64,000 bases of DNA from Minisyncoccia bacterium (GTDB lineage Bacteria > Patescibacteriota > Minisyncoccia > Phycocordibacterales > DATDWN01): the NCBI GenBank assembly GCA_049297675.1, contig JBAQUS010000017.1, positions 7,456-71,455 on the forward strand. Direction: 5' to 3'. Under the pieces are notes generated by a model that saw only the letters and a list, made by a program, of their open reading frames with translations, did no database searches and was not told where the DNA came from. Positions 6,789-31,519 of the stretch are shown piece after piece. Position 1 is the stretch's first letter; the number at the start of each line of letters is the position of its first letter. The position numbers were made by a program, and so were the translations under genes.

Positions 6789-7445
6789 ATGGAAAGAAAA
6801 ATACCATTGTTTGAGGGGGAATGCTTTCATATATATAACAGAGGTGTGGATAAAAGAAAAATTTTCTTAGATTCACACGACTATAACAGATTTATAATTT
6901 TACTTTACCTTTGTAACTCAAACTTACCTGTTGATCTTCAAAAAATTTTTCGAGAAGGACGAACATTTAATGAGATATTTAGTATTGATAGAGGCGATCG
7001 ACTTATTGACATAGGCGCTTGGGTGTTGATGCCAAATCACTTTCATCTATTGGCCAGGCAGAATTGTAGTGATGGATTGTCTGTTTTTATGAGAAAACTA
7101 TGTACCGGATACTCAAATTACTTTAATCAAAAAAATAATAGATTAGGAGCGCTTTTTCAGGGCAGATTTAAATCTGAACATGCATCTGATGATAGATATT
7201 TAAAGTATTTATTTTCCTATATTCACTTAAATCCAGTTAAACTTATTCCAGGGGAGGAAAATTGGAAGGAGGTTGGTATAAAAAATCCAGATAATGCATC
7301 TAAATTCATAAATAATTATGAATACTCCAGTCTACATGACTACAGAAATGAGACCTTGTTCAGTAGTCTAGTAAATAAGGAACTATTTAGTAGTATCTCT
7401 GACGATTTAAGGGATATGGTTGAAAGCGTGAATAATTGGCTATAA
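6789..7445 (+). CDS. REP-associated tyrosine transposase (RAYT; IS200-like Y1 HUH transposase), copy 1
   Basis: FHIYNRG, AWVLMPNHFHLL (HuH) and YIHLNPVK (catalytic Tyr) motifs, matching the E. coli RAYT pattern. Confidence 0.8.
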   Translation: MERKIPLFEGECFHIYNRGVDKRKIFLDSHDYNRFIILLYLCNSNLPVDLQKIFREGRTFNEIFSIDRGDRLIDIGAWVLMPNHFHLLARQNCSDGLSVFMRKLCTGYSNYFNQKNNRLGALFQGRFKSEHASDDRYLKYLFSYIHLNPVKLIPGEENWKEVGIKNPDNASKFINNYEYSSLHDYRNETLFSSLVNKELFSSISDDLRDMVESVNNWL

Positions 7446-7453
7446 ATAAGCTT

Positions 7454-7476
7454 TTGTGGAAGACGGTCTTCCACAA
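7454..7476. repeat. REP family 1 palindrome TTGTGGAAGAC-G-GTCTTCCACAA
   Basis: 11-bp perfect arms, in the same orientation as 6755-6775. Confidence 0.85.
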
Positions 7477-10593: not shown

Positions 10594-13083
10594 ATGATGA
10601 CTACAACACAAAAAATAAAAGAGTTACCTATACCTACGTATTTACTCGTGCTACTTTTGTTTATTATAGGATCAGCCCAAGTTGCCTATGCTGAGGTCTT
10701 GTCTACCGATTTCACAGAAACAACGATTATCTCCAGTGACTTAGATGGACCATCATCAATGGCTTTTACACCGGACGGCAGACTACTCATAAATGAGCTT
10801 GGAGGTCAGATAAGAGTATATAAAAATGGTATTTTACTTTCCGAACCAGCACACACTCTGCAAGTATCAAATGAAGGTGAACAAGGATTAACAGGATTAG
10901 CTATTGACCCAAATTTTGGAACAAATGGATATATTTACATTTACTATACTGCGCTTTTTCCATCACCACACAACCGTCTAAGTCGACTGACGATGTCAGG
11001 AGACACAGTCGTACCAAATAGTGAAAGGATTCTTTTAGATTTGCCTTCTGTGGGAAATCAGAACCATCATGGTGGAGACATACAGTTTGGACTAGACGGA
11101 AAACTATATGTTACTGTTGGTGATCATACTATACGAGCAAATGTTCAGTCTCTGTCGAGTCTTTTTGGAAAAGTTCTGAGGTTGAATTCTGATGGTACTA
11201 TTCCATTAGACAATCCCTTTGTTAACACCCCAGGAGCCCGAGGTGAAATATGGGCATTAGGTTTCCGTAACCCTTTTAAGTTTGCAATAGATCAAGTAAG
11301 TGGCAAGATTCATGTCAATGATGTTGGAGAAAATACTTGGGAAGAAATAAATCTTGTTCAAAGAGGAGCAAACTATGGTTGGCCAACATGTGAGGGTGTT
11401 TGTTCAAATTCAAGTTTTGTAAATCCAATACACTCATATATTCACAATGGTAATGCATCCATAACTGGCGCAACATTTTACAGAGGGTCACAGTTTCCAA
11501 GTGAATATGTGGGTAGATATTTATTTTCGGATTACAACAGCAATTGGGTCAAAGTCCTAAATGATAATGGCACTGCTTCGGATTTTATTATTAATATCCC
11601 AACCCCAATTGATCTTCTGACGGCTCCTGACGGAAGCCTTTATGTATTATCTATTTATCCTGGAAGGCTAACAAAAATTGCATATACAAAACCAAACCAA
11701 AACCATGCTCCGACAGTTACTGCCACAGCTAATCCATCTTCAGGGATATCTCCACTAAATGTTTTATTTAACGCAAATGGTAGTGATTTAGATGGTGATC
11801 TATTATCTTATGTTTGGAATTTTGGTGATGGAACTCAAAGTATCTTCGGTAAGACTCTCTCCCATATTTATAACTTAGCAGGGAATTATACTGCTGTAGT
11901 GACTGTCTCTGATGGGCGGGGTGGAACAGGAACAAGGAACATTAACATTAGTGTTGGAAGTCCACCAACAGGAGTATTTACCACTCCGCTCTCCGGAGTA
12001 AAATATAATGCGGGTGATATTATTTCCTATTCAGGTACTGCAACCGACCTTCAAGATGGTACATTAGGTGCATCAGCATTTAGTTGGACAATAATTTTTC
12101 ACCACGGCACACACATTCATCCTTTTCTTGGACCAGTCAGTGGAGTTAGAAGCGGTAGTTTTCTAATCCCACAAACTGGCGAAGTTTCTTCAGATGTTTA
12201 TTATGAGATTCAATTAAAAGTAAAAGACTCATCTGGACTAGAACATATCACTAGTCGAAATATTTTTCCTAACACAGTAAATGTGACCATTGCCACTAAC
12301 CCTACTGGTCTTTCTGTTAATCTAGATAGTCAGCCAAAAATTACTCCATATTCTTTTGTTGGTGTGACTGGATTTACAAGGGATGTTGGTTTAATTTCTC
12401 CGCAGACCCTAAATGCCAAGAAATATGAATTTATATCTTGGTCCGACAATGGCCTGCAAAATCATTCCATAAGAACACCCAACGTAAACACTACATACAC
12501 CGCAAACTTTAGAGAAGTGGTTGTCACACCACCTCCACCACCCCCACCACCATATTCACAAGCATCTTACGTAACACCACCCCCACCTCCACCTTACTCC
12601 CAATCATCCTATTATTCACAAGCATCTTACGTAACACCACCTCCTCCACCAACATATTCACAGGCGTCATACTACTCTCAATCATCATACGTCACACCTC
12701 CTCCACCGTCATATTCTCAATCATCATATATGACGCCTCCTATTCCACCTGCTGGAGGAACATCTTCATGGCAAACCCCTACTCCATGGACCACTACTCC
12801 ACAGACACAAAATTCAGGATGGTCACAACCATCGTCTTGGAATACTACACCTGTAGCTTCAGCCTCATCATGGTCACAGGAGACGACATGGCCACAACCT
12901 GTTGGTTGGACAACTACACCAGTAGGATCTGTAAGTACATGGTCACAGCCAACTGCTTGGAGTAGTTCTCCTGTTGGTGCATCGTCCTCTTGGGCATCAC
13001 CTACTTTATGGACTGTAAATACAGGTTCGACACAAAGTTCTTCTTGGCAGACAAGTGAGTGGGCTGCTCCTACCCCATGGTAA
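10594..13083 (+). CDS. cell-surface protein: signal peptide, glucose/sorbosone-dehydrogenase-like beta-propeller, PKD domain, Pro-rich and Trp-periodic C-terminal repeats
   Basis: GSDH-like motifs (GLTGLAIDPNF, NGYIYIYYT), a PKD-like WNFGDGT, then low-complexity repeats. Confidence 0.7.
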   Translation: MMTTTQKIKELPIPTYLLVLLLFIIGSAQVAYAEVLSTDFTETTIISSDLDGPSSMAFTPDGRLLINELGGQIRVYKNGILLSEPAHTLQVSNEGEQGLTGLAIDPNFGTNGYIYIYYTALFPSPHNRLSRLTMSGDTVVPNSERILLDLPSVGNQNHHGGDIQFGLDGKLYVTVGDHTIRANVQSLSSLFGKVLRLNSDGTIPLDNPFVNTPGARGEIWALGFRNPFKFAIDQVSGKIHVNDVGENTWEEINLVQRGANYGWPTCEGVCSNSSFVNPIHSYIHNGNASITGATFYRGSQFPSEYVGRYLFSDYNSNWVKVLNDNGTASDFIINIPTPIDLLTAPDGSLYVLSIYPGRLTKIAYTKPNQNHAPTVTATANPSSGISPLNVLFNANGSDLDGDLLSYVWNFGDGTQSIFGKTLSHIYNLAGNYTAVVTVSDGRGGTGTRNINISVGSPPTGVFTTPLSGVKYNAGDIISYSGTATDLQDGTLGASAFSWTIIFHHGTHIHPFLGPVSGVRSGSFLIPQTGEVSSDVYYEIQLKVKDSSGLEHITSRNIFPNTVNVTIATNPTGLSVNLDSQPKITPYSFVGVTGFTRDVGLISPQTLNAKKYEFISWSDNGLQNHSIRTPNVNTTYTANFREVVVTPPPPPPPPYSQASYVTPPPPPPYSQSSYYSQASYVTPPPPPTYSQASYYSQSSYVTPPPPSYSQSSYMTPPIPPAGGTSSWQTPTPWTTTPQTQNSGWSQPSSWNTTPVASASSWSQETTWPQPVGWTTTPVGSVSTWSQPTAWSSSPVGASSSWASPTLWTVNTGSTQSSSWQTSEWAAPTPW
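12529..13080 (+). repeat. coding tandem repeats: (YSQ[AS]SYVTPPPPP)n followed by (S[ST]W..PT.W)n
   Basis: Includes an exact 29-bp DNA duplication, TATTCACAAGCATCTTACGTAACACCACC, at ~12555 and ~12616. Confidence 0.8.
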
Positions 13084-13153
13084 ATATCTCTTGCAGGATG
13101 GTTAGATTTTTGGTAGCATACCGCTAGTTAGGTTTTATGTAATAATTAGTAAA

Positions 13154-13423
13154 ATGAAGAAAGATATACACCCTAAAAACTATAGGCCAGTTCTATTTAT
13201 AGACAACTCAAACAACGCAGAGTTTGTTATTTCCTCTGCTGTAGAAACAAAAGAAACTCTCAAAGCAAAAAACGGCAAAGAGTATCCTGTTTTTAGAGTT
13301 GAAGTTACCTCAGCTAGTCATCCTTTTTATACAGGTAACGAAAAAATGTTAGATTCTGCAGGTAGAGCAGAAAAGTTTAAGGCAAAGGTAGCCAAGGCTA
13401 CAAAGAAACAAGCTCAACACTAA
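13154..13423 (+). CDS. rpmE: 50S ribosomal protein L31, type B (no zinc ribbon)
   Basis: MKKDIHP...HPFYTG signature with no Cys ligands. Confidence 0.85.
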   Translation: MKKDIHPKNYRPVLFIDNSNNAEFVISSAVETKETLKAKNGKEYPVFRVEVTSASHPFYTGNEKMLDSAGRAEKFKAKVAKATKKQAQH

Positions 13424-13500
13424 TACACGAATTATCCCGAATGACACGAATAGAAGAATTCACTAGTGTCATTTGTTTTTATTCGTAATTCGCGTCGTGT
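13424..13500. repeat. intergenic CGAAT-array element, copy 2
   Basis: ACACGAAT, CCGAAT, ACACGAAT, then ATTCGTAATTCGCG. It fills the whole rpmE-prfA spacer. Confidence 0.65.
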
Positions 13501-13502
13501 TT

Positions 13503-14483
13503 ATGGATATAGAAAAATTTTCAAATAACTCAAAAACTTCTTACCTAGCGGGGGAGTATAAAAAACTCCTAAAACAGGAGGAGGAGACTAAAATAATGAT
13601 TGAGAGTGACCCGACTCTTAGAGATTTAGCCTACTCAGAATTTGAGTCAATTAAAATTCAGAAAGAAATTCTTCTAAAACAGATGGAAGATATTTTTAGT
13701 GAATACGACAAAGAAACAGAGGAGTTTCCAAACGAAGTTATTTTGGAAGTTAGGGCTGGAGCCGGTGGGGAAGAGGCTGCACTTTTCGCTGAGGAACTTG
13801 CCAAAATGTACACTACTTATGCTAAAAATCATGGTTGGGGAGTATACGTTGTTGACGAATCCTGGAGCAGTACAGGGGGCTATAAGGAAGCTTCATTTGA
13901 AATACGTGGCAGAGAAGTATATAAAAGTTTAAGGTTTGAAACTGGTGTTCATAGAGTTCAGAGAGTTCCTGCTACTGAGAAAAATGGTAGAGTTCATACA
14001 TCGACTGCTACGGTTGCTGTTCTTCCTGTACGAAAGAGGACAAAAATAGTTATAAATCCAGCTGACATTGAAATAGAAACTTCACGCTCAGGTGGGGCTG
14101 GTGGACAAAATGTCAATAAAATAGAATCTGCCGTCAGAATTATTCACAAACCAACTGGTCTTGATGTCCGTTCAACTGCTGAGAGAAGTCAGTTGAAAAA
14201 TAAAGAGAGAGCTATGACTATTTTGACTGCCAAGATTCAAATGCTTAAAGATGAAGAGGAGGCGAAGAAATACTCTAGTGATCGCAAGTCTCAGATTGGC
14301 ACAGCTGACAGGTCGGAGAAGATTCGCACATACAATATTTTGCAAGACCGCATAACTGATCACAGAATAAAACAATCTTGGCACAATATAGAGAAAATTC
14401 TCCTAGGTGGTATAGAACCGATTCTTTCTGTCATGGCAAATTTTGATGGAAAGTCTGTAGAAGGGGATGATTCTGATGATTGA
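13503..14483 (+). CDS. prfA: peptide chain release factor 1
   Basis: GGQ motif (SGGAGGQNVNK). Start set at the ATG at 13503 rather than the ATG at 13473, which lies inside the repeat. Confidence 0.9.
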   Translation: MDIEKFSNNSKTSYLAGEYKKLLKQEEETKIMIESDPTLRDLAYSEFESIKIQKEILLKQMEDIFSEYDKETEEFPNEVILEVRAGAGGEEAALFAEELAKMYTTYAKNHGWGVYVVDESWSSTGGYKEASFEIRGREVYKSLRFETGVHRVQRVPATEKNGRVHTSTATVAVLPVRKRTKIVINPADIEIETSRSGGAGGQNVNKIESAVRIIHKPTGLDVRSTAERSQLKNKERAMTILTAKIQMLKDEEEAKKYSSDRKSQIGTADRSEKIRTYNILQDRITDHRIKQSWHNIEKILLGGIEPILSVMANFDGKSVEGDDSDD

Positions 14484-14492
14484 CTTACAGGT

Positions 14493-15263
14493 TTAGATAA
14501 TCGCCACTAAATATCGCCATTTTCCAAATTGATCCTTATAAAACTGTGTTTGAGTGAAACTGTTGTCTTTCAAAATCCTTGAAACATCGCCTTTTTGGTT
14601 GTATCCGAATTCCATATAAATTTTTCCACCTTTATTAAGATGTTTCTCGGCTTGCTCTAAGAATTTTTTTATATAAAGAAGTCCATCACTTCCGCCGAAT
14701 AGGGCGTTGTTTGGCTCAAAGTCTAAAACTGATTTTTCCACCTCACTTTTTTTGTTTTCAGATATGTATGGTGGATTTGCAAAAATATAATCATATTTAT
14801 CCACTATATTTTCAAATATATCTGATTTTATTGTTCTTATTTTGGAATTATTTACTTTATTTTGTTTACAGTTAATTTTAATCTGCATAATCATTGCCAT
14901 TTCGGAATCAGAGAAATCCATTTTTACATTTGGACAGTTTTTAAGTACTAAAATTCCAACACATCCCGACCCGGAAAACATATCAAGACACATTTTAGGT
15001 GTTTTTGATTTGTTCATTTCCTTAATTGCTTTCTCAACCCAAAACTCGGTTTCAGGTCTAGGAATAAGTGGTCTCTTTGTGAGGTCGATTTTACATCCCA
15101 AAAAATCGGCAAAACCGATAATGTATCCAACTGGTTCGCCAGTTTGCAACCTAGAAAGGTCAGTTTTTGTTAATTTTTCCTTCCTACCTTTGTACTTTTC
15201 ATTAACAATCCAGCGGATTTCCCGGCCATATTTGTTAAATTTCTCATCTGTCCTATCTTTCAT
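14493..15263 (-). CDS. prmC: release-factor glutamine N5-methyltransferase
   Basis: NPPY motif (FANPPYI) and SAM-binding motifs. Convergent with prfA. Confidence 0.85.
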   Translation of the reverse strand: MKDRTDEKFNKYGREIRWIVNEKYKGRKEKLTKTDLSRLQTGEPVGYIIGFADFLGCKIDLTKRPLIPRPETEFWVEKAIKEMNKSKTPKMCLDMFSGSGCVGILVLKNCPNVKMDFSDSEMAMIMQIKINCKQNKVNNSKIRTIKSDIFENIVDKYDYIFANPPYISENKKSEVEKSVLDFEPNNALFGGSDGLLYIKKFLEQAEKHLNKGGKIYMEFGYNQKGDVSRILKDNSFTQTQFYKDQFGKWRYLVAII

Positions 15264-15425
15264 ATTCAGTGATCATACCTGTTTCTAATTTTTACACAAA
15301 TAAGTTGTGTTTATGTGTATTTCGTTAGTATTGACGTGTATTACTAGAGTATTGTAGTATTGTTCTTGGATAACTCATGAAGCTTTTTTGGACATTTCGT
15401 TCACAACTTAATTGAGGAGGTTCTT

Positions 15426-15809
15426 ATGATCCGTAAAACCGTCTTTACAATCTTGTTTTTTGGATGTATAGGCTGTAGCGAGATTGACACAGCTAAGTTT
15501 CGAGTTTCTGGGTTGAACAGGGACAGTCAAAGAAGGATTATCTTTGTGGTCGATGGACAAAACGTTGGCTCGGTTGTTGAACCTGGAGACACGCAATCAC
15601 CGCATGACATAAAGGTAGTATTCGACAAACCACTATGGTATGGTCTTGGACCGTCGTCCATTAAGACCGCTGACATATCACTCGGTGTTCGAGATGCTGA
15701 TACCCAAGTTGTCTTTATGGACGTAATAAGATGTCAGTTGGCGCAAGATTCGGTTACCAACTTTGTGTATAGCAGGGATGGAGGAGTTGATCGTCTCTAT
15801 TGTCGGTAG
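15426..15809 (+). CDS. hypothetical lipoprotein (127 aa), GC-elevated cassette with a GAGGAGG RBS
   Basis: Signal peptide plus lipobox (LFFGCIGC). Canonical SD. GC visibly higher than the flanks. Confidence 0.5.
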   Translation: MIRKTVFTILFFGCIGCSEIDTAKFRVSGLNRDSQRRIIFVVDGQNVGSVVEPGDTQSPHDIKVVFDKPLWYGLGPSSIKTADISLGVRDADTQVVFMDVIRCQLAQDSVTNFVYSRDGGVDRLYCR

Positions 15810-15844
15810 TAACTTGGAGGTCTAGCTATCAAATTTCGCGAGAT

Positions 15845-15880
15845 CGCGAGGCATAGCCTCAAAGCGCCTCGCGTTTTCGT
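15845..15880 (+). terminator. intrinsic terminator CGCGAGGC...GCCTCGCG followed by TTTT
   Basis: 8-bp GC stem followed by a T-run. Confidence 0.55.
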
Positions 15881-15951
15881 TTATATTAATTGGAAAACTT
15901 TTAATTCACTATTGCCTAATAGTTAAGAATTTGCTAAAGTGTCATTCACAC

Positions 15952-16668
15952 ATGATAAAAACAGAAAAAACAGGATTAGCTACAGGAGGCCTCGTTGAGG
16001 CTCTTTATTCTCATGGAGTTCATTTTGGTTTCATAAAGTCTAGAAGACATCCTTCAACCAAACCGTATATTTACGGTGTTAAGAACAAAATTGAGATCTT
16101 TGATTTAGAGAAAACTGGTAAGGCACTTGAGAGAGCTTTGAGTTTTATAGAGGAGGTTGCTTCAAAAAACGGCAAGATACTTTTTGTTAGTAGTAAAAAT
16201 GAAGCTAAAGAAGCAGTCTCTTCTATGGCTGAGAGTATTGGTGAACCATACGTTGCCGGTAGATTTATAGGTGGAACTATTACTAACTTTTCACAAATCA
16301 GGAAAAGAGTAGAGAAAATGGAGTCTCTTATTTCACAGAGAGAAAAAGGTGAGCTTTCAAAATACACAAAAAAGGAGAGGCTACTTATCGATAGAGAAAT
16401 TGATAAACTTAAAACTTTTTTCTCTGGTCTTTCGGTCATGAAAGCTCTTCCGCAGGCAGTTTTTATTGTTGATAGTAAAAAGGAATCTATAGCTGTAAAA
16501 GAGGCTCAAAAGGCGAATATACCCATTATTGCTATTTGCGGGACTGATAACAACTTAAACGAGGTGGAGTACCCTATACCCGCCAATGACGCAAGCAAAT
16601 CAAGTATAGAGTTTATACTAAAGAAAGTTGTAGAAAGTTTTAAAGCTGGACAGTTGAAGAAAGAGTAG
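15952..16668 (+). CDS. rpsB: 30S ribosomal protein S2
   Basis: GVHFGF...RRHP S2 N-terminal signature. ATG at 15952. Confidence 0.9.
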   Translation: MIKTEKTGLATGGLVEALYSHGVHFGFIKSRRHPSTKPYIYGVKNKIEIFDLEKTGKALERALSFIEEVASKNGKILFVSSKNEAKEAVSSMAESIGEPYVAGRFIGGTITNFSQIRKRVEKMESLISQREKGELSKYTKKERLLIDREIDKLKTFFSGLSVMKALPQAVFIVDSKKESIAVKEAQKANIPIIAICGTDNNLNEVEYPIPANDASKSSIEFILKKVVESFKAGQLKKE

Positions 16669-16747
16669 AATTGAAGTATGATGTAGGACGTACGTGGCAA
16701 AAAATCTGCTTCGAATATCTTAAACCTAACATTTTACATCTATCAAA

Positions 16748-17335
16748 ATGGTAATAACAACAGAACTTGTAAAAGAGTTACGAGACATTACTGGAGTCTC
16801 AATAATGCAATGTAAGAAAGCACTAGAGGAAGTCAACGGAGATTTGGAGAAAGCCAAGATGATTCTTCAGAAAAAAAGTGCTGATTCAGCCTTGAAAAAA
16901 AGTGGTAGAGTACTAGGAGCTGGAGTAGTTTCTTCTTATGTTCACTCAACTGGCTCAATCGGCACATTAGTTGAGCTTTTGTGCGAAACAGACTTTGTGG
17001 CAAAAAACGAGGAGTTCAAAACTCTGGCTAGGGATATCGCTATGCATGCCACTGCTACCAATCCTCAATTTCTAAAGTTAACAGATATAGATGAGCACTC
17101 AATGGGTTTGGCAAAAGAGATGTTCGAAAAGGAGGTGGAAGGGAAGTCAGGGGATATGAAAGAGAAGATTTTAGATGGGAAACTGGGTGCTTATTGGAAA
17201 GATAGAGTTCTTCTTGAGCAATCATTTATTAAAAATCCGGATTTAACTATTACAAATCTCATACAAAGTGCGACGCAAAAATTTGGCGAAAAAATAGAAC
17301 TGTCTCGCTTCACCAGGTTTTCTGTTTCACAATAA
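16748..17335 (+). CDS. tsf: elongation factor Ts (short form)
   Basis: TTELVKELRDITG...MQCKKAL UBA-like N-terminus. Follows rpsB. Confidence 0.9.
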   Translation: MVITTELVKELRDITGVSIMQCKKALEEVNGDLEKAKMILQKKSADSALKKSGRVLGAGVVSSYVHSTGSIGTLVELLCETDFVAKNEEFKTLARDIAMHATATNPQFLKLTDIDEHSMGLAKEMFEKEVEGKSGDMKEKILDGKLGAYWKDRVLLEQSFIKNPDLTITNLIQSATQKFGEKIELSRFTRFSVSQ

Positions 17336-17778
17336 TTTTATGATAATAACTATATTTTTAACATCCATGATTTTTTTAGTTTCAATGATATTTTCTAAGG
17401 CCATAGAGATAAAAACAGGTAATGCACATTTTATGTCTACACTATTTCAAAGATTTGATGGTAATGTTCATGTTTATTCTGACCTTTTATTTTCAAAATT
17501 TAAAAGATATAGGAAAATTTCAAACTTACTTTTTTTTGAATTTATACCCTCATTCTCTTTTGAAATATTGACTAGAATGAATGACTTTGTTTCTAAGAAA
17601 TACCATACAGCTGGCAACAATTTTCGTGGAAAAAAGGCTCTTCGGCATGATGGTTCAGTCTCTTTCTTTCTTAGTAGACTGTCCGAAGAAAAAATCAATT
17701 CAAGTGAGAGTAGAATTTAGTTTTCTTGAAAAAAGTGCTCAAGAATGTTAGATTATGTTTGTTCATTATAGATTTTTT

Positions 17779-17854
17779 GCCACCTTAGCTCAGTTGGTAG
17801 AGCGCCACTTTTGTAAAGTGGATGTCCCCAGTTCAAGCCTGGGAGGTGGCTCCA
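17779..17854 (+). tRNA. tRNA-Thr (anticodon UGU), CCA encoded
   Basis: Cloverleaf read by hand: 7-bp acceptor stem GCCACCT/AGGTGGC, anticodon stem CCACT/AGTGG, loop TTTGTAA, T-arm CCCAG-TTCAAGC-CTGGG. Confidence 0.85.
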
Positions 17855-17897
17855 GTTAAAAATCTCAGTGCATACTGGGATTTTTAAATAAGCTAAC

Positions 17898-18581
17898 CTA
17901 GTTATTCTCTGTACTCGTTGCAGTTTTAGCTTTGAGTGTTTTAAGTTCTGGGATCATTTTCTCCAAATCTTCGACACTTTTGAATCCATAGTAAACTTTA
18001 TCTTTTATTATGAGAGCTGGAAGTTCATTTTTTATTTTATTAACAGAGATTAAGGTTTTAACAGCCGAAACGTCGATATTATAATCAAAGGAATAAACTC
18101 TTAAATCCGGATAATTTTCACGAAGATGAGTTAGGACATAACCTTCTTTTTCACAATCTGGACACTTATTGTCAGTGGAATAGAAATAAATAACAGAGAA
18201 AGGCACTCTCTTACACTTTTCGTTTACTTTATTCATAAGCAAGTAATCCTTTATTTCTAAGAGTGAATAGTATTTTTTTAAAGTTATAACCTCAGGATCA
18301 TCGAATCCTCTCTGATTTTCGGTGTAGGAAAGTTTATCCTCCAACTCCCCGAGTTCCTCTGAAAGTGAACCAGTTCCGAGGTCCTTGCATGAGTACTCTT
18401 CAAGTAGGGAAAACTGGGTTTCTGAAGAGAGAATATCGATAGCTATTTTGTCCTGAATATTTCTGATCTCTTCTAGTTTTTTGTTTGCGAAAAAATTAGA
18501 TAGATAAATTGCCGAGGCAAATATAAGTGCTGTAATAAGAAAAGAGAATACATACTTTTGCCAGTTTATCTCGTTTTTCAT
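17898..18581 (-). CDS. membrane-anchored thioredoxin-fold protein with a CPDC motif (putative thiol-disulfide oxidoreductase)
   Basis: N-terminal TM segment and a CxxC (CPDC) motif. Overlaps the upstream GT2 gene by 4 nt. Confidence 0.5.
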   Translation of the reverse strand: MKNEINWQKYVFSFLITALIFASAIYLSNFFANKKLEEIRNIQDKIAIDILSSETQFSLLEEYSCKDLGTGSLSEELGELEDKLSYTENQRGFDDPEVITLKKYYSLLEIKDYLLMNKVNEKCKRVPFSVIYFYSTDNKCPDCEKEGYVLTHLRENYPDLRVYSFDYNIDVSAVKTLISVNKIKNELPALIIKDKVYYGFKSVEDLEKMIPELKTLKAKTATSTENN

Positions 18582-19819
18582 CTCCAGTTAGTTTTTACAT
18601 CGAATACTACGTTAAATAGAGCTTTACCAATCCACAGTGGGGCTATAAACATATACAAGCTTAGGTAGTAAACTACATCCATACCAATATCCAGTTTACC
18701 CTCTGACATTCTTTTCGACATAAGTATCATTGTAATTGTGCCAAGTATAACTACTATTCCAACAAGAGCCATAAACTGTGTGTTTATGTAAAACCAATCG
18801 AAACTAAGCCCACTAAAGTTGAATCCAATAGTTTGGATTCTAACAAATTCACTTAAAATATTGTTTATTATGTTAACAACAGAAACAATCGAAACAAAAA
18901 GTACAGACACTACAGAAAGTGCCGCCATAGGTAAAATAATCATTCCAACGTTACCATATTCCTTCTTAAAAAACATATCTCTGTAATCACTTGCGTTTTT
19001 TATAAATCCGTATGACCACCTAACTCTTTGTTTTAGAAGTTTCCTAATGGTTTTCGGCGGGACAGTATAAACGTAAGCATTGTGAGCATGGACAATTTTC
19101 ATTCCATTTTTTTGCATACGGAGTGCAACTTCAATATCTTCTGTGTTGTGGGCATGTTTATATCCACCAAGTTTGTCGAAAACTTCTCTTCTAAATATCG
19201 AGAATGGTCCAGGAGTGATATAGATAGCTTGCATATAGTGGAACATTTTTCTGGTGAATATTCCAAACCCGTATTCAACCTTTTGTAATAATTGCAAGAA
19301 GTTCTTTGGTTCCCAAAGTTTTATTGATGGGGCAACAGCCATAACCTGCTTATCTTCAAAATAAGTAACAATCTTTTTAAGAGCATCACCCGAGACATAT
19401 GAATCAGCGTCTAAGCATCCAACCAAGTCACTCTGGCTTTTTGATAAACCTAGATTCAGTGCGGTGTATTTTCCACCATTTTCTTTTGTGTAAAGTTCAA
19501 CCTGCGTATTACTACTGAACTTCTGGACGACCCCCCATGTATTATCGGTTGATCCATCATCAATCACCATTATTTTTAATTTATTCTTAGGGTAATCGAG
19601 TTTCAGAAGAGAGTTGATGGTTTTCGATACAGTTGTTTCTTCGTTCCAGCATGGGACTATGATAGAAACTGTAGGATACTTTGCTAGCACTCTTGAGGAT
19701 AACCTCTCCTCTTCTTTTATGTTTAGTCTGTTTTCAAAATATGTGATAAGCAAAAAAACCTCAAAGTTAAGAGACAAGAATAAAAAAGCGTATGTGATTA
19801 TATTTGTGATGTCTGCCAT
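18578..19819 (-). CDS. processive family-2 glycosyltransferase (NodC / cellulose-synthase-like)
   Basis: D, DxD and QRVRW (QxxRW) motifs, plus C-terminal TM helices. Confidence 0.8.
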   Translation of the reverse strand: MADITNIITYAFLFLSLNFEVFLLITYFENRLNIKEEERLSSRVLAKYPTVSIIVPCWNEETTVSKTINSLLKLDYPKNKLKIMVIDDGSTDNTWGVVQKFSSNTQVELYTKENGGKYTALNLGLSKSQSDLVGCLDADSYVSGDALKKIVTYFEDKQVMAVAPSIKLWEPKNFLQLLQKVEYGFGIFTRKMFHYMQAIYITPGPFSIFRREVFDKLGGYKHAHNTEDIEVALRMQKNGMKIVHAHNAYVYTVPPKTIRKLLKQRVRWSYGFIKNASDYRDMFFKKEYGNVGMIILPMAALSVVSVLFVSIVSVVNIINNILSEFVRIQTIGFNFSGLSFDWFYINTQFMALVGIVVILGTITMILMSKRMSEGKLDIGMDVVYYLSLYMFIAPLWIGKALFNVVFDVKTNWR

Positions 19820-19823
19820 TTAA

Positions 19824-20966
19824 CTACCTTACTTTAGCCCCGTAGACCTTAGTGGTTGTATCTTCCAACATTTTGTGTAAAGTGTCAACCTCCTCGTTGG
19901 TTAATGTTTTGTCGAGCGACCTATAGGTGATTCTATAAGCATAACTAATATTTCCTTCGCCGAATTTTTCAGCGTTCTCGTACTTATCTATTAGGCTAAC
20001 TTCCTCGACCATATCGGGAATAGTTTCTCTGACAATATCAAAATAATCGTTTGGCACAAAAGTGTTTTTTACTACAAAAGATATGTCACGAACTACAGGA
20101 GGAAATTTGGAAACCTCAACAAACTTTTGCCCGATCTTTAGCTGTTTAGTAACTCTAGGATCCTCTGACCAAAGTAAGCGAATGTCAGGCAAACTCATAG
20201 AGGCTATGGCAAGACGCTCCATTCCGAACCCGAAAGCCCAACCGTTGTAGCCTTCCAAACCAAAATTCGATAGTACAGATTTTCTTGGAAGTCCAGAGCC
20301 AAGCATCTCAATCCATTGGTTGTTTATAAATGCTTCCATCTCGAAGCTCGGGTCAGTGTAGGGGAATGTGTGGTCATAAAATCTAAATTCTACTCCCTCT
20401 CCAAAAACACTCTTGGCTACGTCAGTTAAAATAGCTTTAAGATCATCTGGTGTGGTGTCTTTTTTCTCGTCCGGAGCAAGGAAAAGTCCACCAATTTGAT
20501 GAAAGACATTCATATGACGAGAATCGATTTCGTCCTTTCTATAAACTTTCCCGTAGCAAATTGCTCCTATGCTCTCTTTCTTAAGAATCCTCTCTTTAAT
20601 CTCTGGAAGGTTTAAATAGTAATACCAAAAAACTGTATCATGGGTTCTAAGAACATTTTTGTCATCAACGTAGTAAGTATCAGATTTACTTCTGGCAGGG
20701 TGACCTTCAGGCATATTGAAAAGGTCAAAAAGTATATCAGTTGATATAATTTCAGGAATATTAATTATATCTAAACCGTCTAGACTTTTGACCTTAAGCG
20801 TTCTCTGTACAATCTCATTTATTGGACTTCCACAAGTTCTAGAGAGGTCAGGCATTGAGAGGTATTTTCTTATTCTCGTCGCCTCAATATCACTTCGTGT
20901 TTCAAATTTCTTCAAAACTTCCTCCTGCTTTTCCGAGGAAATAAGGTATTCCTTATGGTTGGACAT
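19824..20966 (-). CDS. pheS: phenylalanine--tRNA ligase alpha subunit
   Basis: GHPAR, LRTH, class II motif 2 KVYRKDEIDSRHMNVFHQIGGL, and motif 3 FGFGMERL. Confidence 0.8.
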   Translation of the reverse strand: MSNHKEYLISSEKQEEVLKKFETRSDIEATRIRKYLSMPDLSRTCGSPINEIVQRTLKVKSLDGLDIINIPEIISTDILFDLFNMPEGHPARSKSDTYYVDDKNVLRTHDTVFWYYYLNLPEIKERILKKESIGAICYGKVYRKDEIDSRHMNVFHQIGGLFLAPDEKKDTTPDDLKAILTDVAKSVFGEGVEFRFYDHTFPYTDPSFEMEAFINNQWIEMLGSGLPRKSVLSNFGLEGYNGWAFGFGMERLAIASMSLPDIRLLWSEDPRVTKQLKIGQKFVEVSKFPPVVRDISFVVKNTFVPNDYFDIVRETIPDMVEEVSLIDKYENAEKFGEGNISYAYRITYRSLDKTLTNEEVDTLHKMLEDTTTKVYGAKVR

Positions 20967-21020
20967 ATTTGAACTATACCAAAATCCTTCCCAAATTCCA
21001 ACATAATTATCTTTTTAATC

Positions 21021-21051
21021 TACTACCCCTACATCGGAAGTAGGAGTAGTA
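21021..21051. repeat. REP family 2 palindrome TACTACCCCTAC-ATCGGAA-GTAGGAGTAGTA
   Basis: Imperfect 12-bp arms, 7 nt upstream of the RAYT-2 start. Confidence 0.75.
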
Positions 21052-21058
21052 TCTTGGC

Positions 21059-21772
21059 ATGGCAAAAAGAAGGATAAATTTCTCATTAGATGAGTTCTAT
21101 CACTTGTATAATAGAGGAAACAGTAAGCAGAAAATATTTCTTGATGAACAGGATTATGATAGGTTTACCAAACTTCTTTTTCTCTGTAACACCATAAAAA
21201 GTATTAATTATAGGGATGATATCGTTGAAAAAGAAATTGATGCATGGGATTACGATAAAGGAGAAAGTATTGTTTCGATAGGAGCATGGGTTCTAATACC
21301 CAACCACTTTCATATACTTATAACAACACCCCCCACATCGGAAGTCGGGGAGGGGTCGATAAGTTTTTTTATGAAGAAGGTTTGTATTTCATACTCAAAG
21401 TACTTTAATAAAAAGTATGAAAGAGTAGGAGGTTTATTTGAGTCGAATTTTAAGTCTTCACACATAGATGATGATAATTATCTAAAATATATTTTTTCCT
21501 ACATTCACCTTAATCCAGTAAAAAAAGTTTTTCCCAACTGGAAAAATGATGGCATTTTGGATTATGAATTAACAAAAGAGTTTCTGAACAAATATGAGTA
21601 TAGTAGTTACACGGATTATATAAATATAAAAAGAAATCAAAGTAAAATTTTATCGATTGGAGAATTTCCAGACTACTTTTCTGATACTAAATTATTTAAG
21701 GATGAAATTTTTGATTGGCTATCATATACCCCTACTTCCGATGTAGGGGACAATGATGTAGGGGACAATTAG
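21059..21772 (+). CDS. REP-associated tyrosine transposase (RAYT), copy 2
   Basis: FYHLYNRG, AWVLIPNHFHIL and YIHLNPVK motifs. Divergent from copy 1. Confidence 0.8.
   Translation: MAKRRINFSLDEFYHLYNRGNSKQKIFLDEQDYDRFTKLLFLCNTIKSINYRDDIVEKEIDAWDYDKGESIVSIGAWVLIPNHFHILITTPPTSEVGEGSISFFMKKVCISYSKYFNKKYERVGGLFESNFKSSHIDDDNYLKYIFSYIHLNPVKKVFPNWKNDGILDYELTKEFLNKYEYSSYTDYINIKRNQSKILSIGEFPDYFSDTKLFKDEIFDWLSYTPTSDVGDNDVGDN
21329..21355. repeat. REP family 2-like sequence CCCCCCACATCGGAAGTCGGGGAGGGG, in frame inside RAYT-2 (encodes PPTSEVGEG)
   Basis: Shares the ACATCGGAAGT core with the flanking REPs. Confidence 0.6.
21729..21769. repeat. REP family 2 copy in inverse orientation (CCCCTACTTCCGATGTAGGGG) plus a 15-bp tandem duplication (GATGTAGGGGACAAT x2) forming the RAYT-2 C-terminus
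   Basis: Read directly. Encodes ...TPTSDVGDNDVGDN before the stop. Confidence 0.7.
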
Positions 21773-21858
21773 CTGATAATTCATGATGATTTAGGGGGCA
21801 TTTGGAAATATAAGGGAAATTGCTTAGCTGGGAAACAAGGAAAGGAGTGATATTCATT

Positions 21859-21880
21859 CCCCCATATCGGAAGTAGGGGG
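21859..21880. repeat. REP family 2 palindrome CCCCCATATCGGAAGTAGGGGG
   Basis: 5-bp C/G arms around the ATCGGAAGT core. Confidence 0.7.
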
Positions 21881-21907
21881 TGAAGGATTTTTGTGGTGAG
21901 CAATTTT

Positions 21908-21956
21908 AAATAAACAAAACCCCGCGCAACATCCGAGTGCGAAGCACGGGGTTTGT
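21908..21956 (-). terminator. intrinsic terminator on the minus strand (CCCCGTGC...GCGCGGGG then TTTTGTTTATTT)
   Basis: GC-rich hairpin plus a U-tract, immediately downstream of the minus-strand 79-aa gene pair. Confidence 0.55.
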
Positions 21957-21978
21957 TGGCGGGGTGGGGAGGAATGGA

Positions 21979-22218
21979 CTAATCCCTATACTGCTTCCTC
22001 CACTGGGTGAGCTCTTCTTCGGTGATGCCGAGTCTCGACATCCCGTTTTTGGGAAACTCACCGAGGTACTCATCGATGTCTTTGAGGGATGCGTACCCCA
22101 ATGACTGGTTGACTTCTCTCTCACGGAGTGTGTCGACCGCTCTTGGTCCAGTCACCATGACATCCGATGGCATTGGTCCGAACATCTGATTCGCCTTGCG
22201 TTGCCAGTAGTTCGACAT
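21979..22218 (-). CDS. hypothetical protein (79 aa), second gene of a GC-rich two-gene operon
   Basis: AAGGAGGAG RBS and ~50% GC, against a ~37% background. No recognisable domain. Confidence 0.5.
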   Translation of the reverse strand: MSNYWQRKANQMFGPMPSDVMVTGPRAVDTLREREVNQSLGYASLKDIDEYLGEFPKNGMSRLGITEEELTQWRKQYRD

Positions 22219-22251
22219 CTCTCCTCCTTTGGCTTTAGCCCTGTTATGTGG

Positions 22252-22491
22252 CTATAACTTGGCAATTCGATTGTAGCTTCGAACACAGCGACGGAGCGCG
22301 GATTCAGTGTACGCTTCATCTAAGCGATTGGGGAGACGAACAATGAACAGCTCTGCACCGTCCTTGTCATTAACCTTTGTTGCATCGAATTCCCGTGCCG
22401 TGTTGACTAGCCTGTCTTCTTCGAGAGGGAAGTCATTTTCTTCGATGATTACGAGGCCTGTTTCGAATTGTCCTGCATAACCTGGGCGCAT
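22252..22491 (-). CDS. hypothetical protein (79 aa), first gene of a GC-rich two-gene operon
   Basis: AAGGAGG RBS 4 nt from the ATG and a consensus promoter upstream. No recognisable domain. Confidence 0.5.
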   Translation of the reverse strand: MRPGYAGQFETGLVIIEENDFPLEEDRLVNTAREFDATKVNDKDGAELFIVRLPNRLDEAYTESALRRCVRSYNRIAKL

Positions 22492-22514
22492 GAAACCTCC
22501 TTTTTCTAACCGAC

Positions 22515-22543
22515 ATTCTATACTGTTTACATTAACTTGTCAA
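22515..22543 (-). promoter_or_regulatory. near-consensus sigma70 promoter TTGACA-N17-TAGAAT driving the 79-aa gene pair
   Basis: -35 at 22543..22538 and -10 at 22520..22515 on the minus strand. The same hexamers are used at 61781-61808. Confidence 0.55.
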
Positions 22544-22639
22544 GGGTAATTTTGTGGCTAGGAATATTGAATAAATGCTTGTTTGTGAGAGTAGAATTTG
22601 CTATAATTATCAGGTTAAAATGACAAAAAAATAATAAAA

Positions 22640-24727
22640 ATGGCGGAGAAAGATAAAAAAGGAAAAGATAATTACGGGGCGGATGCGATACAGATTCTAG
22701 AGGGTTTGGAGCCTGTTAGAAAGCGTCCTGGAATGTACATAGGTACAACAGGCACGGATGGACTCCACCACTTAATCACTGAGATTTTTGACAACTCTCG
22801 TGACGAAGCCATGGGAGGTTTTGCAAACGAGATTGAGGTTACGCTTCTTCCTGGAAATCGTGTGAGAGTTACTGACAATGGTCGAGGTATTCCTGTTGAT
22901 ATTCACAAGCAGACAAAAGTATCAGCACTAGAAACTATCATGACCACCTTGCACGCTGGAGGAAAATTTGGTGGTGAAGGAACTGGATACAAAGTCTCTG
23001 GTGGTCTTCATGGAGTAGGAGCATCAGTTGTAAACGCCCTTTCAATTTATTGTAAAGTTACCGTTCATAAAGATGGTGGTGAATATGTTCAAGAATACTC
23101 TCAGGGAAAGAAAAAAGCGTCAGTTAAAAAAGTTGGCTCAACAAAAAGAAACGGAACTATAGTGGTCTTTGAGCCAGATCCAGCAATATTTCCTGTAATT
23201 GATTTTTCATTTAAGAGAGTGGTTGATCATTTGAGGCAACAAGCATATTTAGTAAAAGGTCTTAGAATAATAGCCAATGATGCTTCGAAGTACGAGGGAA
23301 AAATTAAGGAGGACGAAGTCTTCAATATTTCTGAATTGGAGCTCGAGATTCCGTCCATGTCTTTTTACTTTGAGGGTGGACTTCTCTCTCTTGTGAAGTT
23401 TTATAACTCATCCTACAAGCCGATACACAAAAACGTTTTCTATGTTGAGAAGAAAACAAATGAATGGGAATCGGTGGAGATTTCGCTTCAGTACGTAGAT
23501 GACATTTCTTCACGCATGATTGGTTTTGCAAACAATATTCACACTCCAGAGGGCGGAACACATATTACTGGTTTTAAAACAGCACTGACGCGCTCACTGA
23601 ACGCTTATGGTAGAAAAAATAATTTAATAAAAGAATCAGAGGATAATTTTACAGGCGAGGATGTGCTTGAGGGAATAACAGCAGTTATTTCTATAAAACT
23701 TCGGGAGATACAGTTTGAGGGACAAACAAAAGCTAAGCTCGGAACTGTGGAGGCTCAAGCTAGTGTTTCAAATGTTTTCTCTGAAAGCTTCAACGCATTT
23801 TTAGAGGAAAATCCAGATGACGCTAAAGCTATAATAAACAAAGTAGTTTTGGCCCTCAAGGCCAGAAAGGCAGCCAAGGCGGCAAAAGATTCTGTTCTGC
23901 GAAAGGGAGCACTGGAGGGTATGACACTTCCAGGAAAGCTTGCGGACTGTCAGTCAAAGTTAGCAGAGGATTCGGAACTTTTCATTGTAGAGGGAGACTC
24001 TGCAGGAGGCACTGCAAAAACTGGTCGCGACAGACGAACGCAGGCAATACTTCCGCTTCGAGGAAAAATTCTAAATATTGAGCGTGCCAGACTCGACCGT
24101 ATGCTTGAATCCGAGCAGATTAAAAACCTAGTTATAGCTCTCGGTACTGCCATAGGGGATACATTTGATATTTCCAAACTTCGTTATCACAAAATAATCA
24201 TAGCCACAGATGCTGACGTTGACGGAGCGCACATCCGCACACTTATTTTAACCCTGCTTTACAGATTCTTCAGACCACTTATAGATGGTGGGTTTGTCTA
24301 CATTGCTCAACCACCGCTTTATAAAATAAAAAAAGGTAAGGAAATTTTTTACGCATATTCAGATGAGGAAAAAAATAAAGTTGTAGGTAAGGATGTTGTA
24401 GAAGAGATAGAAGAAGTGGAAAGTGTGAAAGATGAAAGTTTGAAAGTGGAAGGGTCAATTGAAGAGTCTGAGCAAGGGGAGTCCTTGCTCAAGGGCAAAA
24501 CGAAAGATAAGAAAGTTTCGATTCAGAGGTACAAAGGTTTGGGAGAAATGAATGCTGAAGAACTTTGGGAGACAACCATGGACCCTGTAAGGCGTGTTCT
24601 AAAGCAAGTGGCAGTTGAGGACACAGTATCAGCAGACAAAGTTTTCGATATTCTTATGGGTTCAGATGTTCCTGCAAGGAAGTCGTTTATTCAATCCAAT
24701 GCCACTAAGGCAAATTTAGATGTTTAG
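22640..24727 (+). CDS. gyrB: DNA gyrase subunit B
   Basis: GHKL ATPase motifs (GLHGVGASVVNALS), a TOPRIM domain, and a C-terminal RYKGLGEMN. Confidence 0.95.
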   Translation: MAEKDKKGKDNYGADAIQILEGLEPVRKRPGMYIGTTGTDGLHHLITEIFDNSRDEAMGGFANEIEVTLLPGNRVRVTDNGRGIPVDIHKQTKVSALETIMTTLHAGGKFGGEGTGYKVSGGLHGVGASVVNALSIYCKVTVHKDGGEYVQEYSQGKKKASVKKVGSTKRNGTIVVFEPDPAIFPVIDFSFKRVVDHLRQQAYLVKGLRIIANDASKYEGKIKEDEVFNISELELEIPSMSFYFEGGLLSLVKFYNSSYKPIHKNVFYVEKKTNEWESVEISLQYVDDISSRMIGFANNIHTPEGGTHITGFKTALTRSLNAYGRKNNLIKESEDNFTGEDVLEGITAVISIKLREIQFEGQTKAKLGTVEAQASVSNVFSESFNAFLEENPDDAKAIINKVVLALKARKAAKAAKDSVLRKGALEGMTLPGKLADCQSKLAEDSELFIVEGDSAGGTAKTGRDRRTQAILPLRGKILNIERARLDRMLESEQIKNLVIALGTAIGDTFDISKLRYHKIIIATDADVDGAHIRTLILTLLYRFFRPLIDGGFVYIAQPPLYKIKKGKEIFYAYSDEEKNKVVGKDVVEEIEEVESVKDESLKVEGSIEESEQGESLLKGKTKDKKVSIQRYKGLGEMNAEELWETTMDPVRRVLKQVAVEDTVSADKVFDILMGSDVPARKSFIQSNATKANLDV

Positions 24728-30877: not shown

Positions 30878-31519
30878 ATGAATTATGTTGTCGGTATAGA
30901 TGAAGTTGGAAGGGGACCACTGGCTGGGCCTGTCACTGTCTGTCTGGTTTGTTGCGAAGATAGATTATATAGAAAGTTAAAGCAAAATAGAAGTTTACCC
31001 AAATTAGGTCAAGACAGCAAAAAAATCTCAGAAAAAAATCGCCAGAAATACTCCTTGACCCTGAAGTCCCTAATGTCAAAGACGGTCTTTGACATTTCCA
31101 AAGGGGACCCCTTTGGGAATGAGATTGGAATGTGGTATGTAGTTAATCATGTTTCAAACAGAGTAATTGACCAAAAGGGAATTTCTTTTGCGATTGAAGG
31201 GGCTATTGCCACAGGAATTAAGGGGTTAAATTTAGATGCAAAAAATTGCATAATTTTGCTTGACGGAGGATTAAGAGTGCCGAAAAATTTTAAACAGAAA
31301 ACAATAATAAAGGGCGACGAGAGGGAAAAAATAATTAGCTGGGCTTCGATTTTGGCAAAAGTTTCGAGGGATGATCTGATGATAAATTTGAGTAGGAAGT
31401 ACTCATTTTATGGTTTTGATAAACACAAAGGCTATGGCACCAAACACCACAGAGAAATGATCCTGGAATTTGGCTTAAGCAAAATTCACCGCAAAACCTT
31501 CTGCAAAAAATTGATTTAG
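30878..31519 (+). CDS. rnhB: ribonuclease HII
   Basis: GIDEVGRGPLAGPV active-site motif. Confidence 0.9.
   Translation: MNYVVGIDEVGRGPLAGPVTVCLVCCEDRLYRKLKQNRSLPKLGQDSKKISEKNRQKYSLTLKSLMSKTVFDISKGDPFGNEIGMWYVVNHVSNRVIDQKGISFAIEGAIATGIKGLNLDAKNCIILLDGGLRVPKNFKQKTIIKGDEREKIISWASILAKVSRDDLMINLSRKYSFYGFDKHKGYGTKHHREMILEFGLSKIHRKTFCKKLI

Follow-up and report, generated by a model that had tools for sequence, protein, structure and literature searches.

A RAYT-like gene of Patescibacteria carries a copy of its own flanking palindrome in frame

Introduction

RAYT genes, which encode tyrosine transposases of the Y1/HUH kind, have been described as vertically inherited and immobile (PMC5581495). In subclass 2.4 of the tnpAREP genes (Bertels group 4), repetitive extragenic palindromes (REPs) lie in frame in the loop between strand beta3 and helix alphaC, an extension at the periphery that, in the view of Quentin, Siguier, Chandler and Fichant (2018, PMC6006769), the protein tolerates, and the presence of an in-frame REP in a tnpAREP gene was called unique to this subclass (PMC6006769). 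Genes of subclass 2.1 were described as having no REP-like hairpins near the gene (PMC6006769), and a terminal inverted repeat motif, GGGGWSAS, is reported for them. REPs that are perfect palindromes with loop-specific recognition exist (Corneloup et al. 2021, PMC8266576). Di Nocera et al. (2013, PMC3733652) described repeats beside Y1 genes that run into the gene's 5' or 3' end, and also REPs read in frame within other genes. Here we analyse a 64-kb stretch of DNA (38% GC) from a Minisyncoccia/Patescibacteria metagenome-assembled genome, the whole of which we call the window, and in it the gene RAYT-2, which has a copy of its own flanking palindrome inside its reading frame. A literature search on RAYTs in Patescibacteria or the candidate phyla radiation found no relevant paper.

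RAYT-2 is like the genes of subclass 2.4 in having its cognate palindrome in frame in the beta3-alphaC loop (at amino acid 91; the loop is named in Fig. S7 of PMC6006769) together with flanking palindromes. In a comparison made by motif only, the subclass 2.4 signatures (WQ, YIxNNP, a core of ~146 aa and a median length of ~194 aa; Table 1 of PMC6006769) are not matched by RAYT-2, which has LFES, YIHLNP, an SS tail motif and 237 aa. The hosts are Patescibacteria here and Cyanobacteria and Bacteroidetes for subclass 2.4; here each gene has about three copies of a short, perfectly palindromic hairpin that is essentially its own and lacks a GT[AG]G foot, whereas the hairpins of subclass 2.4 form dispersed REP families; and the lineage-by-lineage concerted evolution of three copies that we see here was not reported for subclass 2.4 (PMC6006769).

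By motif signature the clade to which RAYT-2 belongs resembles subclass 2.1 (Bertels group 1, or TIRYT) rather than subclass 2.4. The signature of subclass 2.1, again compared by motif only, is NH[YF]H, FQ, Y[IV]HLNP, a C-terminal SS motif and a median length of 238 aa. NHFH is present in RAYT-2; the W-motif position reads FE (FQ in its two paralogues in the window, RAYT-1 and RAYT-3), and the tail motif reads YEYSSY where the clade consensus is WSSY. Further points of likeness to TIRYT-TIRtron systems (Di Nocera et al. 2013, PMC3733652; PMC6006769) are the low copy number and the flanking inverted or self-complementary repeats at fixed short distances, some of which can extend into the open reading frame (ORF) at its 5' or 3' end. 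Unlike the description of subclass 2.1, hairpins flank nearly every gene of the clade and also its distant relatives, and an internal in-frame copy is present here and is not described for that subclass.

Results

RAYT-2 (21059-21772, + strand, 237 aa) was recognised as a Y1/HUH tyrosine-transposase-like gene by Pfam, by motifs and by fold. It matches Pfam Y1_Tnp with E=2e-5 (25.1 bits, cut-off 23). The superfamily is characterised by an HUH motif and a catalytic tyrosine on the HUH fold, which is unrelated to that of RNase H, and RAYT-2 has both residues: H83-F-H85 (21305-21313) and a catalytic-type Tyr148 within YIHLNP (21500-21517), residues that are invariant in an alignment of 119 homologues. 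Scores against the NCBIfam equivalog model NF047646 (REP_Tyr_transpos) are 48 bits for RAYT-2, 50.6 for RAYT-1 and 65.1 for RAYT-3, all under its curated cut-off of 80. The AlphaFold (AF2) model of RAYT-2 has a predicted local distance difference test (pLDDT) score of 88.6, and the top match to this model in the Protein Data Bank (PDB) by Foldseek is 4ER8, the E. coli TnpAREP with a REP hairpin, followed by the ISDra2 and IS608 TnpA proteins. The likeness surfaced by fold search; a PDB sequence search with RAYT-2 reached 4ER8 at only E=0.49. Judged by the conserved HUH and YIHLNP motifs and the structural match of the model to 4ER8, the predicted enzyme belongs among those that bind hairpins.

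Four copies of the palindrome CCCCTAC-ATCGGAA-GTAGGGG are present in the window, all of them at RAYT-2: a scan with a 19-nt pattern and <=3 mismatches gave 5 matches at these 4 sites, where shuffled sequences lead one to expect 0.01, and found no copy elsewhere in the 64 kb. The upstream copy, CCCCTACATCGGAAGTAGGAG (21026-21046, + strand), ends 12 nt 5' of the ATG and folds at -5.9 kcal/mol (z=-2.5). The internal copy, CCCCCACATCGGAAGTCGGGG (21330-21350, + strand), contains the core ACATCGGAAGT at 21335-21345, and its codons make up the loop that links the HUH strand to the following helix, the segment 21329-21355 being translated as PPTSEVGEG (amino acids 91-99). The 3' copy (21729-21749) has its loop inverted and is assigned to the - strand, reading CCCCTACTTCCGATGTAGGGG on the + strand; the last codons of the ORF overlap it, and it encodes (T)PTSDVG(D). 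The fourth copy, CCCCCATATCGGAAGTAGGGG (21859-21879, + strand, 2 mismatches), is 87 nt past the stop codon, at the left edge of a GC-rich island. An earlier note on this DNA had described the internal copy and the inverted copy in the C-terminal tail, and direct reading of the sequence bears out both, with their peptides; the upstream and the fourth copy are additional to these. The two peptides are alike because the two copies share the same codon phase relative to the hairpin.

The internal copy in the window is a degenerate hairpin, where one T-A pair has become C.C through two synonymous changes at third positions. Shuffled sequences fold as well as it does (21330-21350, z=0.09), and because a synonymous-recoding test was not significant (the perfect stem is only 4 bp) it cannot be called a selected hairpin on its own evidence. 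At the 3' copy there is an exact 15-bp tandem duplication of GATGTAGGGGACAAT (21740-21754 and 21755-21769, + strand) that runs from the last part of the loop across the 3' arm to 5 nt past it. The stop codon TAG (21770-21772) follows directly after the second unit. The duplication adds five residues, DVGDN, to the tail. The earlier note had it position the stop codon as well; it does not, since a single unit would be followed by that very TAG. In two independent assemblies, the NCBI metagenome-assembled genome GCA_049296155.1 and the Logan assembly of SRR28011701, stretches of 3.3-3.7 kb match the locus with 0 mismatches and encode exactly the RAYT-2 protein, duplication included.

Alignment shows that the PPTSEVGEG region is an insertion relative to RAYT-1 and RAYT-3 (RAYT-2 has 5 aa more after HUH) and relative to distant homologues with short loops. 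In the structural model the HUH strand spans residues 83-89, the REP-coded loop 90-96 and the following helix 97-119, and the tail from residue 227 is predicted to be disordered (pLDDT <50). This tail is 16 aa longer than that of RAYT-1, and neither RAYT-1 nor RAYT-3 has a tail of the RAYT-2 type. RAYT-1 ends in ...NWL*, with its hairpin 10 nt past the stop, and RAYT-2 runs on from ...DWL through its 3' hairpin, so by comparison with RAYT-1 the tail is best read as an ORF that has run into its 3' flanking hairpin.

We drew on a database set of 6482 relatives of RAYT-2, with peptides compared in the top 120, and retrieved homologue DNA from 25 species-representative loci and 80 metagenomic loci (by an alignment-based metagenome scan). 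The final tally covers 76 unique homologous genes with 49-100% identity to RAYT-2. A single-protein scan of species-representative contigs yielded mostly distant homologues without an internal copy, which served as an outgroup; in distant homologues the loop after HUH is short, of the form HFHLLVKEKxENGIS. An internal palindrome is present at the same codon in 67 of the 76 genes, beginning 2-4 codons past HUH, with a median stem of 9 bp (maximum 20) and 63 distinct sequences; in most of the closer homologues it is perfect and rich in GC. Among the 60 loci for which both flanks were available, 42 have both an upstream and a 3' copy, 9 have the upstream copy only, 2 the 3' copy only and 7 neither, and the flanking copies usually match the internal one with 0-1 mismatch. 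In most loci, 8-35 nt separate the upstream copy from the ATG. The 3' copy is at or just past the stop: of the 42 loci, 26 have it past the stop, 3 have it across the stop and 13 have it within the ORF. Flanking by a palindrome specific to the gene is thus seen in the window and at 42 of the 60 loci. No dispersed family in high copy number outside genes is found: beyond the cassettes (>120-150 nt from the homologous genes) there are only 15 further copies in 326 kb of homologue flanks, beside the 4 copies in the 64 kb of the window.

Hairpins were also seen in other numbers and other places. Some loci have additional local copies, and L046 is the sole locus with a dispersed cognate hairpin (CCAAGGGTGACCCTTGG), with 6 more copies within 3 kb (0.4-3 kb downstream); this set behaves like a true REP cluster. 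More distant homologues (41-50% identity) have both flanking hairpins and sometimes an internal copy at codons 52-60, which is in another loop, upstream of HUH (L006, L007, L014 and L020, 43-51% identity). Their position indicates that the copies at codons 52-60 are independent acquisitions, and that intragenic carriage of hairpins arose more than once. At the protein level, the peptide (S)QQGRTLL recurs upstream of the start region and in mid-protein in L013 (VMFK01000030.1), which suggests yet another placement. In L109 (nt 12162-19473) the homologue P0108 adjoins a set of genes resembling those of type IV secretion or conjugation (TraG-like P-loop, TraC-like, PrgI, TrbL), and it is also near dnaA-dnaN.

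The peptides encoded after HUH vary greatly. Those in the top 120 relatives include SPTSDVG, SPRSHLG, SPKSDFG, PMSDIG and PKPGLG, and the same peptide is often found again in the tail. In other lineages the loop peptides are unrelated (SHKSDLW, PEDGLRG, RKQGFR, TEARLP, PKPGLGVVG), and they are translations of perfect palindromes identical to the non-coding flanks. One core, CGGAAGCAAGGCTTCCG, is read in two frames by different lineages, giving RKQGFR in one and TEARLP in the other. Related lineages differ by compensatory changes in the two arms and so have mirror-codon peptides, such as HKSDLW from CCATAAGTCGGACTTATGG and HMSDMW from CCACATGTCTGACATGTGG, with further variants in CCACCAGTCCGACTGGTGG (HQSDWW) and CCACAGGTCCGACCTGTGG (HRSDLW). 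When loop segments were compared with synonymous recodings of themselves, 21 of 53 beat at least 99% of the recodings. The comparison across genes places the constraint on the nucleotide palindrome and not on the peptide. Many loops do read [ST]P-x-S-[DE]-x-G, as they would if a conserved P-x-S-x-x-G loop motif happened to be back-translated into a REP-like sequence. We give this explanation practically no credence, and the unrelated peptides of other lineages refute it: the peptides at the site differ from gene to gene and always track the gene's own flanking hairpins, and because those hairpins are non-coding the nucleotide similarity is not coincidental. The earlier note had named shared peptide segments in homologues without nearby REPs as what would refute it; the outcome is the opposite, for homologues do have a segment at this site, but each has the peptide of its own hairpin.

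In L057 (nt 376-418) the internal palindrome reaches a 20-bp stem, with the codons of a conserved YITI mirrored in the downstream arm (peptide ...DCNM). This extended stem looks like hairpin-templated copying.

RAYT-2 has a syntenic orthologue in L108, a gene with 58% identity that lies between pheS (62% identity) and gyrB, as in the window. L108 has the same 21-nt hairpin upstream of the gene, internally (where it is perfect) and in the tail; the loop orientations differ, and L108 has an arm duplication of its own (12 nt). Because the same hairpin occupies the three sites in a syntenic orthologue with only 58% identity, we regard the cassette as old, immobile and vertically inherited, and consistent with this RAYT-2 is a single-copy, domesticated gene and not an active insertion sequence: its paralogues are diverged (35-46% identity). 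Hairpin types track the protein tree in a neighbour-joining sketch. Comparison of the loci further shows that the three copies change together between lineages, the pattern of concerted evolution, that across deep divergence the cassette has stayed in synteny without moving, and that the internal copy can decay or vanish and the flanks persist. In the nested clade L042-L048 the internal copy has been lost and both flanks have been kept, and it has decayed in L064, L051, L059 and the window.

Several features support ongoing copying or conversion among the hairpins, namely chimeras, compensatory differences, outer-arm duplications, and the extra local copies and the copies at codons 52-60 described above. 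In L079 and L093 the internal copy is chimeric, with arms of different types. Differences between flanking copies and perfect internal copies comprise 10 that are compensatory, 43 that are single-sided and 3 in which both sides have changed but do not pair. Tandem duplications of the outer arm are present at 15 of 200 hairpins, compared to 3 in the control configuration, and they affect coding and non-coding copies; examples are the 12-nt duplications in L108 and in the internal copy of L109. The 15-bp repeat in the window is one case of a recurrent mutational by-product. We found no hairpin-bounded excision or deletion products among ~80 loci. A comparison of N- and C-terminal identities gave no outliers that would indicate recombination at the internal hairpin, a weak test whose summary correlation and mean were NaN and whose ranking of pairs may be affected by undefined values.

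The earlier note had seen in RAYT-2 an insertion of a REP into its own transposase gene, with the resulting peptides exapted. What holds of this is that the gene's own flanking palindrome is in frame inside it, and the longer loop and tail of RAYT-2 relative to its paralogues, and the near-identity of the hairpin copies, are what a recent insertion would leave. It was not an event of this genome, however: the same site is occupied in 67 of 76 homologues and in the syntenic orthologue L108, and the 64 kb hold no dispersed copies of the hairpin. The exaptation part is unsupported, since the peptide is hypervariable and independent of frame (one core being read in two), the tail is predicted to be disordered, the 3' copy is non-coding in most homologues (past the stop in 26 of 42), a nested clade does without the internal copy and keeps its flanks, and the copy in the window is degenerate. 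We therefore rate recent insertion with exaptation as very improbable. The best explanation of the comparative data is that neither the REP-coded peptide nor the C-terminal tail has been exapted, both being passengers.

A -10-like hexamer, TAGTAT (21047-21052, + strand), stands 6 nt before the ATG of RAYT-2. The arrangement TAGTAT-N6-ATG implies a putatively leaderless or near-leaderless transcript, and with the hexamer at this distance the upstream hairpin would therefore lie in the spacer/-35 zone, outside the gene's own transcript. Of 52 clade genes, 37 have such a hexamer (at least 5/6 match) ending 4-9 nt upstream of the ATG, in most cases 6-7 nt, compared to 31% of control ORFs, and Shine-Dalgarno-like motifs are nearly absent in clade genes. 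A consensus promoter and terminator scan found no canonical sigma-70 site on the + strand and no canonical -35; the leaderless promoter is proposed on the comparative -10 data, not on that scan. The control ORFs, which are from loci L026-L105, have a -10-like hexamer 4-9 nt before the ATG in 31% of cases and a Shine-Dalgarno-like motif in 10%, which hints at widespread leaderless expression in these Patescibacterial contigs.

The promoter context bears on whether the hairpins act as RNA structures, the flanking ones as terminators or insulators and as stabilisers of mRNA 3' ends, roles that have been proposed for REPs, and the internal one as a modulator of translation or decay. The flanks of L088, L096 and L100 do resemble bidirectional intrinsic terminators (A-run, hairpin, T-run), the 3' copy is located at the transcript end, and REPs are reported as regulators in 3' untranslated regions (PMC3733652). 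Against this, the upstream copy precedes the -10 box and is thus not part of the transcript of the gene; the stems are perfect on both strands, and G.T mismatches are not commoner than A.C mismatches on the sense strand (1 of 16 in the internal copy is G.T or T.G, a weak test on few mismatches); most internal copies lack a T-run; and an Rfam scan of 20800-22700 gave chance-level matches only. The position of the upstream hairpin, the missing G.T bias and the missing Rfam match together argue against a purely RNA-level role, and we consider it improbable.

Each of the three RAYT paralogues in the window is flanked by its own palindrome, and there is no near-identical copy of the RAYT-2 gene in the 64 kb. 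The RAYT-1 cassette (6756-7474, + strand; ORF 6789-7445) has GTGGAAGACGGTCTTCCAC at 6756-6774 and at 7456-7474, a hairpin with a GTGG...CCAC 'double foot'. RAYT-1 is 46% identical to RAYT-2, with TAGTAT 6 nt before its ATG and no internal copy. The RAYT-3 cassette (62988-63848, - strand; ORF 63175-63795) has palindromes of the TGCCAAGGGGCACCCTTGGCA type at 62988, 63052 and 63827. RAYT-3 is 34% identical to RAYT-2, with TATAAT 5 nt before its ATG and likewise no internal copy.

Related hairpins turn up at two more places in the window. The RNase HII gene (30878-31519, + strand) contains two adjacent in-frame GC-rich palindromes at 31075-31117, GTCAAAGACGGTCTTTGAC and CCAAAGGGGACCCCTTTGG, which encode SKTVFD and SKGDPFG. 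The first has the core AAGACGGTCTT in common with the hairpin of RAYT-1, and the second is similar to that of RAYT-3. Both may be hairpins inserted in frame, like the palindromic elements of Rickettsia (RPEs). A lone exact RAYT-1 hairpin with inverted loop is at 41101-41119, in a 1.5-kb ORF-poor gap (40251-41785), and is followed by TTGACT-17-TACAAT; no tRNA was found there.

The GC-rich island beside the fourth copy of the RAYT-2 palindrome (~21950-22550) has 49-53% GC in surroundings of 33-38%, and contains two 79-aa ORFs on the minus strand without a Pfam match. A terminator-like hairpin (~21919-21955) is also at its left edge, beside the copy at 21859. The island is absent from the syntenic locus L108 and may be foreign DNA inserted beside the cassette.

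Discussion

We favour, with moderate confidence, the reading that RAYT-2 and its palindromes are a private three-hairpin cassette, the internal copy of which is ancient, tolerated, in frame and kept similar to the others by concerted evolution. On this reading RAYT-2 is one of a large Patescibacterial clade of Y1/HUH (RAYT/TnpAREP-like) genes that are inherited vertically and have a layout in common: a GC-rich palindrome in the promoter zone upstream of a leaderless-type -10 box, a second one in frame after HUH in a loop between a beta-strand and a helix, and a third at the 3' end, past the stop or under the last codons. The palindromes would, by analogy with REPtrons, be the cognate sites that the encoded enzyme recognises as single-strand hairpins. 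The internal copy probably arose when a flanking hairpin was copied, in a cis-biased manner, into a surface loop permissive for it, and would have persisted by being tolerated in frame and repeatedly homogenised with the flanking copies. Candidates for the homogenising activity are cleavage and rejoining by the enzyme itself or short-tract conversion, together with self-correction of the hairpin.

A number of points weigh against this reading. That the enzyme binds and cleaves these palindromes is argued from the REPtron analogy, and the mechanism of homogenisation is one that we infer. No GT[AG]G foot or other shared flank motif, such as would mark a cleavage site, is conserved across the 63 hairpin types; the GTAG in the window hairpin is within the 3' arm, not 5' of the stem. 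The orientation of the flanks relative to the internal copy is random (11/9/13/9), which is unexpected if a strand-specific single-strand enzyme needed a fixed geometry on all three copies. The clade tree is a neighbour-joining sketch, and the hairpin copy counts cover the 64-kb window and 326 kb of locus flanks. In L077 the internal copy is perfectly palindromic yet unlike its flanks, which hints at independent upkeep of the structure, and a perfect palindrome at one codon among proteins with 49-65% identity is also what a selected internal function would give.

These last points lead to an alternative in which selection maintains the internal hairpin as a site acting in cis: the three palindromes would be bound by the enzyme, or by its C-terminal domain, for autoregulation, or the enzyme would cleave or rearrange its own gene at them, as in HUH replication proteins with an origin inside their own gene. 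Besides L077 and the palindrome kept at one codon through deep divergence, this would account for the upstream copy abutting the -10 box in most loci (in the window the extended stem takes in TAGTAT) and for a hairpin that is identical, loop included, in orthologous loci whose PheS proteins are only 62% identical. It fits poorly with the loss of the internal copy in a nested clade that kept its flanks, with its decay in several loci and the window, with the lack of excision or deletion products bounded by hairpins among ~80 loci, with the lack of a recombination signal between N- and C-terminal parts (the weak test above), and with the unconserved orientation. We regard a selected cis site as possible but rather unlikely. 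More tentatively still, the three hairpins might be the minimal control circuit of a domesticated HUH enzyme, the internal copy serving to sense, repress or cut the enzyme's own gene and the identity of the copies locking the enzyme's specificity to its site; if so, the present sample would hold 63 natural specificities.

Among better-known systems, the canonical REPtron (E. coli TnpAREP/RAYT with REP/BIME, 4ER8; PMC8266576; BIMEs being bacterial interspersed mosaic elements) resembles the cassette that we favour. It too is a single-copy, vertically inherited Y1/HUH gene with cognate flanking palindromes, in which enzyme and palindrome co-vary between lineages, and it is the best structural match of our protein model. 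Unlike in the REPtron, we see no dispersed high-copy REP population and no GTAG guide tetranucleotide at the foot, and there is an extra C-terminal domain of ~70 aa as well as the internal in-frame copy. The IS200/IS605 elements (IS608, ISDra2) are similar in having a Y1/HUH gene bracketed by hairpins, in structure, and in that the enzyme reads subterminal hairpins as single-stranded DNA. RAYT-2 departs from them: the window holds no near-identical copies, the Y motif is of class 2 (Y...NP) and not class 1 (Y...Q), there is no sign of mobility, the locus is syntenic over deep divergence, and the same palindrome is at both ends in either orientation.

With the Rickettsia RPEs and intragenic REPs (Di Nocera et al. 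2013) the cassette shares short in-frame palindromes tolerated in surface loops or termini. Unlike in those cases, the host gene here is that of the presumed mobilising enzyme, the site is fixed across the clade and the copy co-evolves with the flanks.

In phiX174 gene A and pT181 repC, a hairpin for an HUH enzyme is within the enzyme's own coding sequence and site and protein co-evolve, the sites being essential replication origins. The internal site here, unlike those, is dispensable in some lineages, and there is no replicon.

The in-frame cognate hairpin, reported as unique to subclass 2.4, thus extends to a group that resembles subclass 2.1, which was said to be without hairpins. The hypervariable peptides of the loop and tail are by-products of the translation of DNA palindromes and should not be annotated as protein motifs. 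The clade bears on how RAYTs and palindromes co-evolve and on what role domesticated transposases have. It is an unusually clean natural data set, with thousands of genes (6482 matches) and about three private palindromes at fixed positions in each. With dozens of distinct palindromes on a conserved protein scaffold, enzyme-hairpin specificity and concerted evolution would be testable with a few oligonucleotides and recoded genes.

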